DNA from: Planctomycetota bacterium
Lineage (GTDB): Bacteria; Planctomycetota; JAJSAM01; JAJVHW01
Direction: 5' to 3'
NCBI GenBank assembly: GCA_965248445.1
Contig: CBDFJG010000003.1
Coordinates: 1,056,001-1,120,000, forward strand
Length of the DNA: 64,000 nucleotides
Positions 22,601 to 28,600 of the stretch are shown here, piece by piece; the stretch's first letter is position 1, and each line of letters begins with the position of its first letter. Made by a program: the position numbers.

Positions 22601-25600
22601 CGGCCTGGTGCGCATGCACCAGTTCCACAAAGTCGAGCTCGTCGCGTTCGCGCGTCCGGAGGATTCGGGCGCCGAGCACGACCGGCTCTGCGAGCACGCG
22701 GAGACCGTGCTGCAGCAGCTCGGCCTGCCGTACCGGGTCGTGTTCGTCTGTTCGGGCGGCATGGGATTCGGTCAGAAGCGGCAGTACGACCTCGAGCTGC
22801 ACTCCCCGGGTGTGGATCGCTGGCTCGAGGTGTCGTCGGTGTCGATCTACGGCGCCTTCCAGGCCCGCCGGGCGGGGATCCGATTCCGGCGCGAAGGGGG
22901 CGGGAAGCCCGAATTCGTGCACACGCTGAACGGGTCGGCGCTGGCCATGCCCAGGGTCATGGTAGGCATCCTCGAGAACTACCAGCGCGAGGACGGGAGC
23001 ATCGAGGTGCCCGACGTCCTGCGGCCGTATATGGGCTGGCGCGCCGAGCTCCGGGCGAAGCGCTAGCCGCTCGTCCGTTCGGCTCCGCTGCGGGCGCTGA
23101 GGCGCCGCACGCAGCGCCATTCCGGACGAGGCTGGCCGCGCCTCAAGTCCCAAGCCCGCGAGACCCGATCCGGAGGGAGGGGCCCCAGGCTCCTCTGAGC
23201 CTCCACCGAGCCTCCGCCGATCCGCCCTTGGGCATCCTGAGAGACAACCGTGCAGATTCTCGCCTCCGCACCCGACCTCCAGCTGACCTGGTTCCACGCC
23301 GCCCTTGCCCTCGGCTTCGTGACGGTCGTGCTCGTGCTCGCCCTGACGCGGGCGCTCAAGGTCCGCATCCTGGCTCTCCGCACCGCGGCCTCGGCCCGTG
23401 CCGAGCTGGCCACGGTCGAGGAGCGCGTCGCGCTGCTCGAGCGGTCCGCGCAGCGGGACATCCGCGCGCAGGCGGACACCGATGTGGCGGTCGGGCGCGG
23501 CAGCAGCACGTTGCACGCCCTCCCGGGCGTGTTCGCGGAGCTCGCCGGCGCACACAACCGCAGTCACCTCTGCGCACACCTGGGACGCGCCATCGAGCGC
23601 ATCACCGAACCGGCGCAGTGGATGGTGTTCCTGGCGGACCCGACGAGCGAGGGCGAGTACGTGCTTCTGGCCGGCGCGGCGAACAACGGCCAAGCGTGGC
23701 CCGAGGGCGCCGTCCTCACCGAGCGGCACGGGCGTCTGGGCCACGCGATCAAGCGCGGCGTGCCCATGAGCGAAGACGACTTCCACGCCGAGCCGCCGAT
23801 CGTGCGCGACCGGCTCCGCACCGACGAGCCGCGTGGCTTCATCGTGGATCTCGCCGTTCCGATCCTCGTCGGAGACGACGTGGCCGGGGTGTTCTCGATC
23901 GGACAGGCGAGCATTCCCGACGAAACGGTGCTCGCGTTCGCGCAGTGCGCCGCCGCGATGATGAGCTCGGTGCTGCGCTGCATGGATGCGCGTGATCTCG
24001 CCAAGCGGCTCGAGGACAGCGACGACCTGACCGGTCTCGGCAACCGCCGCTGGTTCCTCGCGCAGGCGGCGGAGACGCTCTACCGCAACCGCGAACAGGG
24101 TGTGCAGATGTCGCTCGCGGTCTTTGGCGTCGATCACCTCCGCCGGTACTTCGCGGAGCAGAAGGTCGCGGCCACCGGGCGGCTCCAGCGGAGTGTCGCC
24201 GACATCGCGAGGACGCACCTCGGTCAGGGCGCGCTGCTCGCACGCTGGAGCGACAACGAGTTCGCCGTGCTGATGCCGGGTTGCGACCTGCGGGCCGCAC
24301 GCCTGACCCTCGACACCGTGCGCCGCGACATCACGGAGGCCGGCTTCCCGGGCAGCTCAAAGCAGCCTGGCGGAGCCGTCACCATGTCCGCCGGCGTCGC
24401 GGTCTGCCCGTGGGATGGCGTGCAACTCGACGACCTGTTGGACGCGGCCTACTCGGCGCTCGAGGTGGCACGCACCCGCGGCGGTGATCAGGTCGCCGGT
24501 ACGGAGTCGCGCGCCTCGGACTCGTCGTCGTTCTCGTTCGGTTCTGACAGCGACTCCGTCGCGTCGCTCGAGCCCCCCAAGGATCGCGTGCGCCTGCCCG
24601 CGGAGTTCGGGAGCTACGAGGACCTGACTTCCAGCGGTCGCGGCGGCGAAGAGGACTAGGCCCTTCTAAGAGGGATATGCGCGTCCGCTACGAGCGCACG
24701 AGCAACCGCGCGCTCGCCTTCTCGACGAACCGCCCGATCCGCGCAGCGGACGAAGCGTTTGCCTCGCGCAGCGCGGCCTCGAGGTCGTCCGCACGATCCG
24801 CCGGACACGCGATGAGGAGGCCGCCCGACGTCTGGGCGTCGGCCATCTCGAGGCGCGCGTTCTCCGACACGTCGTCGTCGAACGCGCACCACTGCGACGA
24901 GTACGCGAGGTTCCGCTTCGTGCCCCCCGGACAGATGCCGGCACCGATCGCGTCGTGCAGGCCCGGCAGGAAGGGCAGCGCTTCGTAGTGGATCTCTGCG
25001 GAGATCGGATCCTCGCGCACCATCTCGAGCAGATGCCCGAGCAGCCCGAACCCGGTGACGTCGGTGCACGCGTGGACGCCCACCTCCATCATCGCCTCGG
25101 CGGCGGGGCGGTTGAGCGTCGTCATCATGTCGATGACCTTGCGCTCGACGTCACCCCCGACCTTCCCCTTCTTGATGCCGGTCGTGAGGATCCCGGAGCC
25201 GAGCGGCTTCGTCAGGAAGAGCACGTCACCGACGTGAGCGCCGGTGTTGCGTAGCACACGGTCGGGGTGCACGAGCCCTGTCACGACCATCCCGTACTTG
25301 GGTTCGGGGTCGTCGACGGAGTGCCCGCCGAGCACGCACACTCCCGCCTCTTCCGCCACGCTGTCGCCGCCGGCGAGCACCCGGCTGAGCACCTCGTGCC
25401 CGAGCGTCTCGATCGGGAAGCAGAGGATGTTCAGCGCGAACAGCGGCCGCCCACCCATGGCGTAGACGTCGCTGAATGCGTTCGTCGCGGCCACGCGGCC
25501 GAAGTCGAACGGGTCGTCCACGACGGGGGAGAAGAAGTCCAGCGTCTCGACGAGCGCACGCTCCGCGTCCAGCCGGTACACGGCCGCGTCGTCCCCTGTT

Positions 25601-28600
25601 TCGATCCCGACCAGGACGTTCGGGTCGGACCTCACCGGTAGCGCATCCAGCGCCCGCTTGAGGTCCTCGGCGGGAATCTTGCAGGCTCAACCGCCGCCGC
25701 GGGCGAGCGCGGTCAGTCTCGGGGTGGGGTTCACTTCCATTTCCCGATCCTACGGGAGCGCCGTGCCCGGGGCGAGAGTACGGAACCCCAGGTCGCCCGG
25801 CTCCGTCCAGGCTGTCAGGGGGAGAGGGCAGGGCAGCCTCCGCTAGCCGCATCTGTTCACGAGACGTCGCGATGACGGTGCTTTCGGAGTCCACAGGGTC
25901 AGATCTTGGCCAGGCGAGGGCGGATGCTGTCGTCGTTGCCACAAGGGCAACGCGAGTGAGCGGCCGAAACGGCGCGGATTCTGCGGTGTGGGCAGACCGT
26001 AGGCCGGGCGGTGGTGTGGCGGACGGCGCGGCGGGACGTCAGGTCGGCTTCGGGGATGCCAGCAGTCGTTGCGCGCAGCGCTCGAAGACGTGCTGCCAGG
26101 GCCACGACGAGGACATCGAGACCCAGATCCGGCGCGTCGTGATCCGCACGAGCGCGCCGATCTTGAGCAGCCGCAGGCGGATCGTGCCGGCTTGCGCACG
26201 CGCCATCTCGGTGCCGGCGAGACCGATGCGTCGCAGCGCACAGGTCAGGACGTAGGCCATGGCCGACATGGCCATCCGCACGGCGTTGCCCTGCATCGTG
26301 TGCACCGACAGACGGGTGCCGAAGAGCTCGAGCTGCTGCTCCTTGATGCGATTCTCCGCCTCGCCCCGGGCGCAGTAGAGCTGCTCGTAGAGACGCTTGC
26401 TGCTCCAGCTACGAGGCGGCAGATTGGTCACCACGAAGCGGGGATTGCGCTTGCCGCCCGGCAGGTGCTCGGCCTTGGCGACCACGCGACGCCTCTGGCT
26501 CCAGCTCCCCAGCGTGGTCCAGGCAAAGTCGCGAAAGACCCGGGCTGCTCGGCCGGTCTGCACGGCACGGGCTGCGGCCTCATCGAGCGCGTCTTCGACG
26601 TGTCGCTCAAGGCGCTCATTGCGCGCCATGCCCAGCAGGTAGAAGTGGCCGGCGGCCTCGCACCAGGCCATCAGCTCCTCGCGGCAAAAGCCCGAGTCTG
26701 CGCGCACGAGCACCTTGGCCCGGGGCCAGCGGCGCCGCAGACGTAAGACCAGCGCACGGAGCTCGTCCACGACTCCGCGCGCGGGATCTCTGTCAGCGGT
26801 CTGGAGCCGAGCGAGCAAGAGGTGCTCGCCGCAGAAGACGTACAGCGGCAGGTAGCAGTAGCATGGGTATCGGGTTGACGACCGTAGCCACTAGATGTAG
26901 TGTCTGTGCCCTGTGGCGCGCCCCGGCTACCCTGGCAGCATCCTGGAATTCACGCGCCAGTTCGCCACCGAGCAGCAGTGCTTGGACTACGTCGTGCGCT
27001 GCCGTTGGCCCGATGGGTTTCGCTGCCGACGTTGCGGCGGCGCGAAGTCGTGGCCGCGCCCCGACCGCAAGGGACTGCGCTGCGCGGCGTGTGATCTGAT
27101 CACGTCGGTCACCGCCGGGACGGTCATGCACCACAGCCGGCTGCCGCTGCGCACGTGGTTGTGGGCCGCGTACATGGTGTCTACCGACAAGCGCGGCGTC
27201 TCAGCACTCGCGCTCCAGCGCCAGTTGGGGTTTGGCTGCTACGAGACAGCCTATCAGCTGCTGCAGAAACTGCGGACCGCGATGGTCGCTCCCGAGAGGC
27301 GCCCGCTCCACGGCGTCGTGGAGGTCGATGAGACATTGATCGGCGCGCCGTACCGCGGCCGCCCCGAACGCACGCCTTTGGACAAGGCCGTAGTCGTGGG
27401 AGCAGTCGAGGTGCGCCCGACGAAGAAGGGCGGTCTGCAGCCCGGCCGCGCGCGACTGCGGCACGTGGCCCGCGCGAAGAAAGAGAAACTGATCGGCTTC
27501 GTGAAGGATGTCGTCGAGCCGTCGTCGCTGGTGGTCACCGACGGCCACGAGACGTACGCAGTGCTCGAGGAAGCGGGCTATGAACACGGTGTGGAATCAA
27601 CATCGATCGGCGATGCGCAGGCCGACGTCCTGGGGCACCTCCACATGGTCTTCGCCAACCTGAAGACGTGGCTGTCGGGGACCCACCACGGTGGCGTATC
27701 GAAGAAGCACCTGCAGCGCTACCTCGACGAGTTCGTCTTCCGCTTCAACCGTCGCAAGACGCCGCAGGCCGCGTTCCAGACCCTGCTCGGGATCGCCGCG
27801 AAGGCGCCTCCGCACGGCTACGGCGACGTCTACGCCGGAGAGCGCGTGCGAGGCCGGACGCCACACCACAAGATGTAGGGGGTACGGTCGTTATCCCGAT
27901 ACCCATGAGCAGTAGTGCCCGTAGTAGCCGTGGAAGAAGCGGCCCTCCTGCCGGCCGTGCAGCCGCACGTCGGAGTGGTCCAGGTCCAGCACGAGCAGGC
28001 CCGGATCCTCCGGCCCCATGGCCTCGCAGAAGACGTCGCTGAGCACGCTGTCCACGCGCTCCTGGTCCATCTCGATCTTGGCGTAGCGCGTCTGTGCCGT
28101 GGCGCCGAGCTGCGTGGTCTCGAGCCGCGAGAGCGTCGGGTGCGTGGCCAGAGCACCCTCGCGCTTGCCGCACGCCGCGGCAAACAGCGGGTCCTTGCCG
28201 ACATGGTCGTGGTCCACCAGATCCTCGTAGCCCGCGCACAGCCCGAAGACCCGCTGACGCAGCATCTGGCCGACCGTGTGCTCGACCCGACGCGGGTCCC
28301 GGTGGTCCCCGAAGCAGCGCGCAAACCGCGAGAGCAGATCGATGCGACGATCGGTCCGCTCGAGCAGCAGCACGCCCCCGTCGCTCGTCACGGTACCGGC
28401 GTCGAAGCGCGTCACCGCGGTGCGTCCACAGATGCCCGCGAAGAGGGTCCCCTGCGGGCTACAGTCTGTCGTCATCGGGCCGGCGCTCCTGTCGGTGCAA
28501 GTACTGGCGCGTACGAGCACTTAGACAGACGACGGCCCGCTCAGATTCCCGGCTGGTGAACGATTCGGGCTAGCGCCGCACACTCCCGCTGCCCCCGCTG

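Follow-up and report, generated by a model that had tools for sequence, protein, structure and literature searches.

The locus considered here raises the question of whether an in-frame TGA in a selenide, water dikinase gene (selD) ends that gene or encodes selenocysteine (Sec, U), and, if the latter, how far Sec use extends in this organism. The window, meaning the whole stretch of 64,000 nucleotides that was analysed, belongs to a near-complete (92.1%) genome of 5.4 Mb and 69% GC, assembled in four contigs; the titles of its closest relatives read Planctomycetota. The relevant features are as follows.

24688..25740, minus strand: selD, selenide water dikinase, from the TGA=U translation and TIGR00476/NF002098 matches spanning the TGA
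25687..25689, minus strand: in-frame TGA read as selenocysteine (C3:1081689), read directly from the sequence
24688..25635, minus strand: truncated table 11 ORF of 315 aa with a GTG start after the TGA, from the ORF listing
25627..25666, minus strand: candidate SECIS hairpin of selD, starting 20 nt after the UGA, from RNAalifold

When TGA is translated as U, the selD product has 350 aa, with U18 in the motif GGGUACK (ATG...GGC GGC GGT TGA GCC TGC AAG in the DNA). Two curated models match across the TGA: TIGR00476 covers residues 8-316 with 392.3 bits (cut-off 125), and NF002098 covers residues 6-346 with 391.5 bits (cut-off 299). The first-pass annotation had placed a SelD gene split by UGA at this locus, and this holds, as the TGA=U product is matched end to end and the sole ORF listed under table 11 is the truncated form, with GTG at 25635. 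The TGA occupies an identical aligned position in all five orthologues aligned (other genera, 64–73% identity). Exactly one TGA is present in the SelD match of 29 out of 40 related genomes; such a match is seen in 7/7 genomes of the same family and in 9/9 others of the same order. Like known Sec-containing SelD, the protein is full length, scores above both curated cut-offs, has Sec in its glycine-rich N-terminal loop, ahead of Cys and Lys, and co-occurs with selA, selB and tRNA-Sec, with no differences of note. These data confirm that the window gene encodes a full-length, selenocysteine-containing SelD.

Two transposase genes flank selD, which lies outside any operon with the other sel genes; these are found on other contigs. 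The Sec machinery is complete, comprising Sec-SelD, a tRNA-SeC (C2:455518-455613), and selA and selB matches of 502.3 and 335.7 bits in a genome search. No selU was found in the 92.1% complete genome, and Sec synthesis is therefore the evident use of selenophosphate. The host can probably breathe oxygen, judging from a haem-copper oxidase represented by a single COX1 match. The sole Fdh-alpha (TIGR01591, 712 bits) carries Cys (‘CTRLCHAS’), and none of the three molybdopterin loci found in the genome has an internal stop. A Sec formate dehydrogenase is therefore lacking, in agreement with the first-pass annotation.

Using a codon model trained on 1163 long ORFs, 41,444 in-frame TGA sites were examined across the genome, and 198 passed a best-of-six-frames filter. 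This filter recovered all 14 previously listed sites whose coordinates were legible, apart from that of the Rdx gene, which was located by its coordinate. After domain, orthologue and Sec/Cys pair checks, 30 selenoprotein genes, together holding 33 Sec codons, were retained, in place of the ‘about 24’ genes first reported; our first scan missed genes with two close TGAs, and the earlier scan probably did too. The set comprises SelD, one deiodinase-like protein, three AhpD/CMD-like proteins, two DUF3179 proteins, DsbD, one Rdx/SelW-like protein, one ArsC-like protein and 20 other thioredoxin-fold proteins. A UxxC motif is carried by 14 thioredoxin-fold proteins plus DsbD, in line with the approximately 15 first described. 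The statement that all the genes are mis-called is true of the three that we looked at, namely SelD and the two genes whose fragments appear as the database's own entries P0002 and P0058. The combined comparisons confirm some 30 in-frame UGA codons as predicted Sec codons, mostly in putatively exported thioredoxin-like redox proteins.

With TGA read as U, SelD and 22 other genes have a Pfam or NCBIfam match that spans the TGA. Five of the 22 (L008, L012, L014, L024 and L026) score below the family gathering cut-off. No Pfam match was obtained for L020, L022, L023 or L025, and NCBIfam matches cross the TGA in L023 and L020. The earlier family assignments are all backed by domain matches: the deiodinase-like protein matches T4_deiodinase (114.9 bits), all three AhpD/CMD-like genes match CMD and TIGR01926, the DUF3179 genes score 157 and 216 bits, Rdx scores 71.7 bits, and the ArsC-like protein matches ArsC_rel_Se_1 (113.6 bits, cut-off 85). 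Family scores are the support for these eight genes; for L009, L010, L011, L013, L018, L019, L021, L147 and L148 the support is domain evidence only. At each site the UGA coincides with a redox motif, the domain being of the thioredoxin-fold, AhpD-like, Rdx or DUF3179 type. L147 and L148, in which Thioredoxin_7 is followed by PDZ domains as in the Trx7/PDZ (seleno)protein NF041199, score 369.4 and 326.1 bits against that model (cut-off 300). They differ in carrying two Sec residues in a UxxU motif (UDPU and UVPU), where NF041199 is given as CxxU with one Sec in the available text of a 2026 review (PMC13188914). Thioredoxin_7 matches with two TGAs occur in all seven same-family genomes. By a hand tally, these genomes each hold 3 to 11 TGA-containing Thioredoxin_7 domains (49 of 110 matches), and many genomes elsewhere in the phylum contain them too.

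In every family tested, other genera carry TGA at exactly the same place in the alignment, at 36–58% identity (higher for SelD). This includes each of the eight genes with weak or no domain matches, whose orthologues from other genera share the TGA column. The TGA is kept in five genomes for L017 (50–56% identity), five for L014 (with one stop-free form besides), one for L020 (57% identity), three of other genera for L025, six for L022 and two for L024. TGA-bearing matches were found in four genomes for L012, with stop-free forms in two, and in six genomes for L026; L015 and L016 have homologues of both kinds. Three members flagged as weak in the first-pass annotation, C3:628783 (g01949/50) and, equated by place in the gene numbering, C4:135754 and C4:671858, all have orthologues that keep the TGA. 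Overall, the alignments show orthologues that keep UGA or carry Cys at the same place.

A downstream hairpin, used as a criterion in the earlier work, performs no better than chance in this GC-rich genome and does not discriminate. The best hairpin energies averaged −9.51 for 27 candidates and −9.61 for 400 in-frame TGC controls (Mann-Whitney p=0.53). With this genome-wide test null, SECIS support is therefore confined to the SelD, UU and L025 families. The selD hairpin (GGACCUC...GAGGUCC, with an inner stem and a UGGAU loop) has an energy of −18.2 kcal/mol, at the 4th percentile of controls. Across six SelD genes of different genera, RNAalifold kept 14 pairs, one with a compensatory change, and 15 bases (CGGGCGCTGGATGCG) are invariant, synonymous positions among them; this is suggestive of a SECIS element. 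The UU family hairpin has an 8-bp stem and a GUY loop, with the closing pair switched between CG and GC in three of eight sequences. The L025 hairpin has a 6-bp stem with compensatory changes in two of six pairs, and Sec forms have a stronger structure than Cys forms (z −0.39 vs +0.33, p=1.3e-4).

Three components appear to be novel: a family in which two Sec residues stand side by side (UU), a CU/TU family that has no name and has Cys counterparts (L025), and a Sec-containing DsbD. Neither the UU nor the L025 family matched a Pfam model above cut-off, and NCBIfam likewise gave no match at E<=0.001. TGATGA is kept in all 12 homologues of the UU family for which DNA was available, at up to 72% identity, and the UU gene had no match in five same-family genomes. 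The predicted structure (pLDDT 86.4) combines a thioredoxin fold with HMA-like domains and places the UU pair at the CxxC position of a DsbH/DsbD-gamma-like fold in a putatively exported protein. Thioredoxin reductase has a C-terminal Cys-Sec pair, and eukaryotic SelL has a UxxU diselenide. The UU family resembles these in having two redox-active S/Se atoms near enough for a selenenylsulfide or diselenide, but differs in that the Sec pair is adjacent and sits in a bacterial exported thioredoxin-fold protein with HMA-like domains. We found no description of it in the literature searched, and none of the strings UUx, xUU, UUP, TUU, GUU or CUU in the available text of PMC13188914. For the L025 family, 80 loci show U (32) or C (48) at one column. 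In the predicted structure, U103 occupies the N-terminal end of helix 1 in a thioredoxin fold (core pLDDT >90), with 3f9u, DsbH and DsbD-gamma as best matches.

The DsbD protein shares the three-domain architecture of this electron transporter, with an N-terminal CxxxxC (C153, C158), a DsbD_TM core (77.9 bits) in which two transmembrane helices contain Cys (C221, C332), and a C-terminal thioredoxin-fold redox domain. It is unlike known DsbD in that Sec takes the first position of the C-terminal redox motif (GUINC), and in scoring 99.9 against an NCBIfam DsbD cut-off of 330; it also falls just under the Pfam cut-offs for Thioredoxin_7 (26.2 vs 27) and DsbD_N (24.7 vs 25). The TGA is kept in five of five related genomes, and the only DsbD entry found in the available text of PMC13188914 is a rhodanese/DsbD fusion, TsoB.

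The description of these proteins as secreted is partly upheld, on the basis of a crude heuristic: signal-like N-termini were seen in 20 of 27 genes and in 395 of 1000 control ORFs using our own lenient rule, whose errors include a likely false positive (CMD1) and a false negative (L021). The three later-found genes have hydrophobic leaders too. About 23 of the 30 products would thus carry a signal peptide, lipobox or membrane anchor, an enrichment over controls as judged by this rule. As for the helical, TPR or HEAT tails first described, the assignment is firm for one TPR protein, but the HEAT match (24.8 bits) lies below the Pfam cut-off of 27.7; other tails contain PDZ or HMA-like domains.

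Could these TGAs instead be real stops, within pseudogenes, at sequencing or assembly errors, or between adjacent genes in the same frame? TGA is the common stop in this 69% GC genome, and same-frame neighbours do yield false candidates, such as C4:675069, which we rejected as a PEP carboxykinase followed by an MFS transporter; C4:917736, C3:351979 and C4:478431 were likewise rejected, as domain scans gave them no support. In the retained genes with a Pfam or NCBIfam match, however, a single domain spans the TGA, and stop-free homologues carry Cys at the same column. Furthermore, 13 families have TGA at the same column in other genera with both flanks conserved, a pattern that pseudogenes or errors would not produce. 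This reading is largely refuted, and we consider it very improbable. That TGA has instead become a normal sense codon, for Trp or Gly as in genetic codes 4 and 25, is hardly credible: tRNA-Sec, SelA, SelB and SelD are all encoded, most genes end in TGA, 16 of 27 listed candidates terminate at a further TGA, and read-through TGAs occur only within redox motifs, at positions where homologues carry Cys rather than Trp or Gly. The database homologue P0005 of L025 does have W at the U position, probably from a gene call under a TGA=W table.

A more serious alternative, which we regard as possible if somewhat doubtful, accepts the selenoproteome as real but holds it to be unremarkable: known thioredoxin-like families, typical for the phylum, with no network and no new family. 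TGA-containing Thioredoxin_7 domains are indeed present across the same-family genomes and in many others of the phylum. NCBIfam has dedicated models for most published selenoprotein families, yet the UU and L025 families match none. Nearly all family types found here are already tabulated in PMC13188914, which in its available text lists SelD, deiodinase-like, SELENOW-like, AhpD/CMD-like, DUF3179 and ArsC-like proteins, as well as thiol:disulfide isomerase-like, redoxin and Trx7/PDZ proteins, but neither UU strings nor any DsbD entry found other than TsoB. The same source states that aerobic bacteria seldom retain selenoproteins, yet COX1 is present here, and its available text makes no mention of Planctomycetota. 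In the planctomycete literature searched, we found only one report (PMC4807772), whose available text gives six putative selenoproteins, including Sec-FdhA, in isolate P1 from Porphyra, and selU in both P1 and a second Porphyra isolate, P2. Those isolates share with our genome the phylum and a complete Sec-insertion gene set; here we see 30 selenoproteins, Cys-FdhA and no detected selU.

‘Large’ is a relative term, as the largest published sets in the available text of PMC13188914 hold 57 genes (Olavius algarvensis delta-1 symbiont) and 63 genes (a Methylomirabilota MAG). Like these, the planctomycete set has dozens of UGA-Sec genes, predominantly thioredoxin-fold oxidoreductases, many derived from Cys forms and most truncated by gene callers. 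It is smaller, mostly made up of putatively exported proteins, free of anaerobic enzymes of the Sec-FdhA, hydrogenase, Hdr and glycine-reductase types, and hosted by an organism with a haem-copper oxidase. It is nonetheless large, and unusually composed, for a bacterium probably able to breathe oxygen.

The best explanation, which we hold with considerable confidence from in silico evidence, is that Sec-SelD serves 30 genuine selenoprotein genes with 33 UGA-Sec codons, many of whose products would form an exported redox network. SelD would supply selenophosphate, with which SelA would convert Ser-tRNA(Sec) to Sec-tRNA(Sec), and SelB would bring this to UGA codons that have, some 14–20 nt downstream, a short hairpin whose loop contains GU. 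The members placed in the cytoplasm (three AhpD-like proteins, Rdx, the ArsC-like protein and a small Trx) belong to ordinary families that are already known. We propose that DsbD, through its periplasmic C-terminal GUINC motif, passes electrons from the cytoplasm to exported UxxC, UxxU, UU and single-U thioredoxin-fold proteins, whose TPR, helical, PDZ or HMA-like extensions may select substrates. With some 23 of 30 products predicted to be exported or anchored, this organism would spend its selenium mainly outside the cytoplasm, in a thiol/selenol-disulfide network.

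The selD gene of the window reads on the minus strand through an in-frame TGA, decoded here as U (selenocysteine, Sec).

selD: window 24688-25740, minus strand, ATG at 25740, stop TAG at 24688, 350 residues with TGA read as U
Sec codon of selD: window 25689-25687, minus strand, codon 18 TGA, by direct reading of the sequence

The protein begins MEVNPTPRLTALARGGGUACKIPAEDL, placing the Sec in an N-terminal Gly-rich loop with a Lys beyond it (GGGUACK). Alignments to two equivalog models for SelD cross the TGA, namely TIGR00476 (392.3 bits against a cut-off of 125, residues 8-316) and NF002098 (391.5 bits against 299, residues 6-346). 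Judged by sequence, the gene is a full-length Sec form of SelD, a predicted selenophosphate synthetase. The called gene had been described as truncated in the first-pass annotation, and under translation table 11 the only ORF listed is one of 315 aa whose start is the GTG at 25635. One-TGA SelD matches are present in 29 of 40 related genomes (7/7 from the same family and 9/9 from the rest of the order), and four relatives among the 40 carry a stop-free SelD. The U column is identical in all five aligned orthologues, four of which have GGGUACK and one GGGUAAK. The GGGUAAK sequence, orthologue L045 from a related genome, lacks the Cys that follows the Sec in the other five. A candidate SECIS hairpin at window 25627-25666 is common to six genera; one of its pairs shows a compensatory change, and 15 bases, some at synonymous sites, are invariant.

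The gene stands apart from selA, selB and tRNA-Sec, all of which are on other contigs. Directly upstream lie two transposase genes, at window 26039-26818 (minus strand) and 26913-27878 (plus strand). One is IS1595-type, with a zinc ribbon and a DDE domain; the other matches DDE_Tnp_1_4 and is probably 5'-truncated, because its match is confined to positions 185-431 of the 435 in the profile. The 3' end of selD faces a convergent GAF-GGDEF diguanylate cyclase-like gene at window 23250-24659 (plus strand; GGDEF 70.2 bits). The sole tRNA within the window is tRNA-Gln(ctg), at 31080-31153 on the minus strand.

The bacterial Sec-decoding set of tRNA-Sec, SelA and SelB is present in full in this genome of 5.40 Mb (four contigs, C1 to C4; 68-69% GC). 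A tRNA-SeC(tca) lies at C2:455518-455613, one among 56 tRNAs reported by ARAGORN, and selA and selB score 502.3 bits (cut-off 267.9) and 335.7 bits (cut-off 242.25), respectively. No selU was found in the genome, which is 92.1% complete. There is one haem-copper oxidase subunit I (493.6 bits), and the closest relatives by locus search are MAGs titled Planctomycetota.

Sec codons were sought genome-wide using a codon log-odds model trained on 1163 long ORFs, with which 41,444 in-frame TGAs having an open frame on both sides were scored. Sites were kept where the frame beat the five others on both sides of the TGA, leaving 198 for motif inspection. This yielded 27 candidate genes. That the scan was blind to genes with two close TGAs emerged from Thioredoxin_7 matches containing 2 TGA, and a dedicated double-TGA scan added three genes, two of the Trx7/PDZ type and one with a tandem TGATGA at C2:719266. 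The total is 30 selenoprotein genes with 33 Sec codons. The legible sites of the first-pass annotation were all recovered by the genome-wide scan, along with further sites, except Rdx, which was found where that annotation had placed it; its estimate of about 24 selenoproteins was sound in kind but slightly low. When the 27 proteins were run by blastp on 77,140 read-through windows, a scan blind to double-TGA genes, no more paralogues emerged, and the flanks of the first 27 genes hold no additional coding-like read-through.

About 160 other scan sites looked like gene ends and lie outside the 30. The site at C4:675069 was rejected as a PEPCK and an MFS transporter sharing one frame. Those at C4:917736, C3:351979 and C4:478431 were rejected for having no domain and a non-protein-like composition, or for lying opposite a real gene; one domain scan of C4:917736 used an out-of-frame slice and is uninformative for that site. 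Near-identical segment copies at C1:9086 (plus), C2:872616 (minus) and C4:899877 (minus) read ...ARALRVE-TGA-VVASKTLGYVLGA... and stay in frame through a hydrophobic stretch that looks strongly coding (downstream coding scores 0.64-0.67); a repeated element bearing two neighbouring genes is the probable explanation. In a repeated element with at least three copies (C2:459092, C2:233473, C3:164310), 8 codons separate two in-frame TGAs (...PLPVAR-U-GSHAVKG-U...); the element resembles an insertion sequence and is left out of the count.

Domain content was assessed by Pfam and NCBIfam searches on proteins read with TGA as U. The deiodinase-like protein (motif SYTUGPF) matches PF00837 at 114.9 bits against a cut-off of 27, and NF038285 at 212 against 250. 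Three AhpD/CMD-like proteins, with motifs CYYU, CLYU and CFYU, match TIGR01926 at 114.9, 127.4 and 122.9 bits (cut-off 81.8) and do not reach the narrower selenoprotein model NF041238 (39-65 bits against 175). Two DUF3179 proteins match PF11376 across the U at 157.2 and 215.7 bits, each with WUPLC. The Rdx/SelW protein, with CAMU at U11, scores 71.7 bits against 22.6 for PF10262 and 67.3 against 34.2 for TIGR02174, and the ArsC-family selenoprotein, with SUTGC at U14, matches positions 1-107 of 107 of NF041106 (113.6 bits against 85). Thioredoxin, redoxin, AhpC-TSA or Thioredoxin_7 matches cross the TGA at C1:172965, C1:471242, C1:614313, C3:1415700 and C1:315009, and on contig C4 at C4:1756433, C4:1613192, C4:186851, C4:1638587 and C4:454098. 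No cut-off was reached for the curated thioredoxin-like selenoprotein families VPGUxxT (NF041382/3), WAxxUGC (NF041054), SelL-related (NF040769) and HUIPC (NF047660). The best scores against these models were 66.6 against 350, 57.7 against 300 and 43.6 against 120, and eight loci (L012, L014, L016, L017, L022, L024, L025, L149) gave no match to them at all.

Seven genes have a weak domain score or none: C3:628783, C4:135754, C4:671858, C3:1530783, C1:331183, C3:1760481 and C4:1210341. These were searched, together with the strong case C4:1613192, in the 16 other genomes of the order. Each of the eight has one-TGA orthologues at 36-57% identity, and the TGA column is shared in every aligned locus, with flanks conserved on both sides. 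Stop-free homologues are known for C4:135754, C3:628783, C4:1756433 and C1:315009.

The two Trx7/PDZ genes both exceed the cut-off of their family model.

L147, Trx7/PDZ: C3:1610639-1612165, minus strand, NF041199 369.4 bits against 300
L148, Trx7/PDZ: C3:1539256-1540608, plus strand, NF041199 326.1 bits against 300

The available text of a 2026 review gives this family as CxxU with one Sec (PMC13188914), whereas the motifs here are UDPU and UVPU, that is, UxxU with two Sec each. Both proteins have PDZ domains, and a CxxCH in each (CFHCH, CVHCH) is a possible site for haem c binding.

The first-pass annotation had found no Sec formate dehydrogenase, and our searches agree. The sole Fdh-alpha (TIGR01591, 712 bits) lies inside a stop-free open frame of 1452 codons and has a Cys in CTRLCHAS, which we take to be the Sec position of FdhA; the genome has just three molybdopterin loci, and all are free of internal stops.

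A putative electron donor for the exported proteins is a DsbD-like gene.

L008, DsbD: C1:397665-399560, minus strand, Sec as first residue of the C-terminal redox motif GUINC

It has a DsbD_TM match (77.9 bits), a C-terminal thioredoxin domain bearing GUINC, an N-terminal CxxxxC and two transmembrane Cys, and the C-terminal motif FDFTGxGU(I/S)NC is kept in 5/5 genomes tested. The subfamily cut-off of NF001419 is not reached (99.9 bits against 330). As it has both the domain architecture and the paired Cys, L008 is predicted to work like DsbD though it stands outside the curated model. Electrons would then pass from the cytoplasm via DsbD to exported Sec thioredoxin-fold proteins, a path suggested by the DsbD motif and its Cys residues.

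Secreted N-termini had been proposed by eye in the first-pass annotation. A home-made signal-peptide rule (basic N-region, 10-residue hydrophobic run, and AxA or lipobox) selects 20/27 genes against 395/1000 control ORFs, in favour of export, although it gives a likely false positive in CMD1, a CMD protein, and a false negative in C4:454098. Hydrophobic leaders are also present in the genes added later (L147-L149). Among the exported proteins, a distance of 62-106 residues separates the U from the predicted start, except in the multi-domain DsbD, C4:186851, DUF3179 and the membrane-anchored C3:1415700. The proposed helical, TPR or HEAT tails held up in part: TPR is firm in C4:454098 (TPR_14 34.8 bits, TPR_16 34.4 bits), but HEAT_2 in C4:1613192 falls below its cut-off (24.8 bits against 27.7). 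The C1:315009 tail is similar to the one found in the VPGUxxT family but stays below the cut-off (66.6 bits against 350), and other tails are PDZ or HMA-like domains.

One of the genes with no Pfam or NCBIfam match belongs to a widespread family in which Sec and Cys forms coexist (the CU/TU family).

L025: C4:1209936-1211183, plus strand, thioredoxin-fold Sec protein, ...LLGQLDEEFCUTNARLARAV; family loci L067-L146

Its 56 database homologues are mostly post-TGA fragments of about 230-280 aa labelled 'hypothetical protein', and its own 271-aa fragment is among them. The best 80 of 563 family loci in species genomes comprise 22 CU, 10 TU and 48 SC forms, giving 32 Sec and 48 Cys variants, with F[CT]UTNARLAR as the Sec motif and LSCANSRFFR as the Cys motif. 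Within these 80, Sec forms are mostly from records titled Planctomycetota, and also from Armatimonadetes/Fimbriimonadia, Xenobia, Vulcanimicrobiota and Obscuribacterales; Cys forms are from Nostoc, Chamaesiphon, Acidobacteriota and Pirellulales. One JGI homologue, P0005, has W in place of U, which suggests a gene call under a TGA=Trp table and not a genuine Trp. An AlphaFold model built from 37 sequences (pLDDT 76.8, core above 90) has a strand at 88-94 and a helix at 104-114, so that U103 sits at the N-terminus of helix 1. The best Foldseek matches are 3f9u, DsbH, DsbD-gamma and AGR2 (TMt about 0.6 for 3f9u, 2ju5 and DsbD-gamma), and on this model L025 is predicted to be a thioredoxin-fold protein.

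The tandem-TGA gene likewise has no Pfam or NCBIfam family match.

L149, UU gene: C2:718948-720114, plus strand, TGATGA at C2:719266, ...GLSGGDH-UU-PSFKFESGSLS

Its 13 database homologues all cover the C-terminal part alone, in fragments of 228-269 aa. At the DNA level, the position of the tandem TGATGA is conserved in 7/7 metagenome loci (37-72% identity), which a single-protein scan missed and an alignment-based scan found, and in 5/5 loci from other genomes of the phylum. The tandem is therefore present in 12/12 homologues with DNA (L150-L156, L160-L164), in the pattern GLSGxxx-UU-PSF. Matches at E<=1e-8 occur in 11 of 151 genomes sampled across the phylum, and no match was found in the five same-family genomes searched. 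In a structural model (pLDDT 86.4, pTM 0.84), a thioredoxin fold of the DsbH/DsbD-gamma kind precedes HMA-like domains with a ferredoxin fold, and the loop that holds UU is at low confidence (block mean pLDDT 59). The model matches DsbH, DsbD-gamma and thioredoxins at TMt 0.53-0.67 and rmsd of about 4-5 Å, from which a thioredoxin fold is predicted. The HMA-like domains resemble the N-terminal domains of CopA and ATP7B (single-domain TMt 0.75-0.80, about 2 Å) but are without the usual CxxC. None of six UU-type motif strings occurs in the available text of the 2026 review (PMC13188914), and a literature search on vicinal diselenides returned nothing relevant.

The downstream hairpin applied as a criterion in the first-pass annotation does not separate these genes from background: the best downstream hairpin has a mean energy of -9.51 kcal/mol over the 27 candidates and of -9.61 over 400 in-frame TGC controls (p=0.53), and the 55-nt MFE after the TGA was likewise not discriminating when compared with 600 random in-frame positions. 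Alignment was more informative, and conserved hairpins with compensatory pairs are seen in the three families aligned, those of SelD, UU and L025. Across eight UU sequences there is an 8-bp stem, (C/G)GAGAGCG-GUY-CGCUCUC(G/C), which starts 14 nt past the second UGA; in 3/8 sequences the closing pair is exchanged (CG for GC or the reverse), at synonymous third positions. The 32 Sec forms of the L025 family share a 6-bp stem, GAGAAC-CGUGYU-GUUCUC, 17 nt past the UGA, with compensatory changes in 2/6 pairs. Row 1 of that alignment, a misplaced reference, accounts for one broken cell each in pairs 30-47, 31-46 and 34-43, and the remaining broken cells are in L099 (a family locus) and one Sec-form row. 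Folding z-scores are -0.39 for Sec forms (n=32) and +0.33 for Cys forms (n=48; p=1.3e-4), with GC of 0.60 vs 0.47. The predicted structure is thus stronger in Sec than in Cys forms, and we give this putative hairpin as a feature of the Sec forms only.

Each of the seven same-family genomes has 3-11 Thioredoxin_7 matches that contain a TGA, compared with nine here (49 of 110 matches, by hand tally), and such matches recur in many genomes across the order and the phylum. The trait is therefore one of the lineage and not of this genome alone. As far as the available text of the 2026 review goes, more than 110 prokaryotic selenoprotein families are known, including nearly all of the family types found here; the largest selenoproteomes have 57 and 63 genes, the latter in a Methylomirabilota MAG; and selenoprotein-rich bacteria are mainly anaerobes, with aerobes seldom retaining selenoproteins (PMC13188914). 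Sec machinery has been described in planctomycetes, with six putative selenoproteins in one isolate, in the accessible part of that report (PMC4807772). The literature searched, in part as partial texts, holds no Planctomycetes or Planctomycetota selenoproteome larger than six, and survey supplements may list these families.

Overall, the selenoproteome is real: sizeable, mostly exported, of thioredoxin fold, and without a Sec-FdhA. The UU family, the CU/TU family and the Sec-DsbD look undescribed, and may already be listed in survey supplements. Taken jointly, the data allow a reading that we put forward tentatively, as rather less than an even bet: a probably O2-respiring planctomycete lineage would run its extracytoplasmic thiol-disulfide chemistry largely on selenium, with Sec-DsbD feeding about 20 exported Sec thioredoxin-fold proteins, and with UU and CU/TU as undescribed families. 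On this reading the UU protein would have the potential for a vicinal diselenide, its UGA-UGA would be decoded via a single downstream hairpin, and the motif would be fused to HMA-like domains; CU/TU would be a widespread family whose Cys counterparts occur in cyanobacteria and Acidobacteriota. If true, this would go against the idea that selenoproteins are avoided by aerobes, and bacterial SelB/SECIS would be able to serve two neighbouring codons.

Large bacterial selenoproteomes are classically those of anaerobes, anchored by formate dehydrogenase. The composition of the present set runs counter to that picture, and is unusual: in a genome that encodes a haem-copper oxidase, anaerobic Sec enzymes are lacking, FdhA is a Cys form, and most of the proteins are periplasmic thioredoxin folds, joined by a Sec-DsbD. 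Gene callers break these genes, as checked for three of them, so annotations of this genome and its relatives miss or truncate exported redox proteins. Sec/Cys exchange can be studied in the CU/TU family, whose best 80 of 563 loci split naturally into 32 Sec and 48 Cys variants, and the UU family is a natural test both of how one bacterial SECIS could serve two adjacent UGAs and of the role of a vicinal diselenide.
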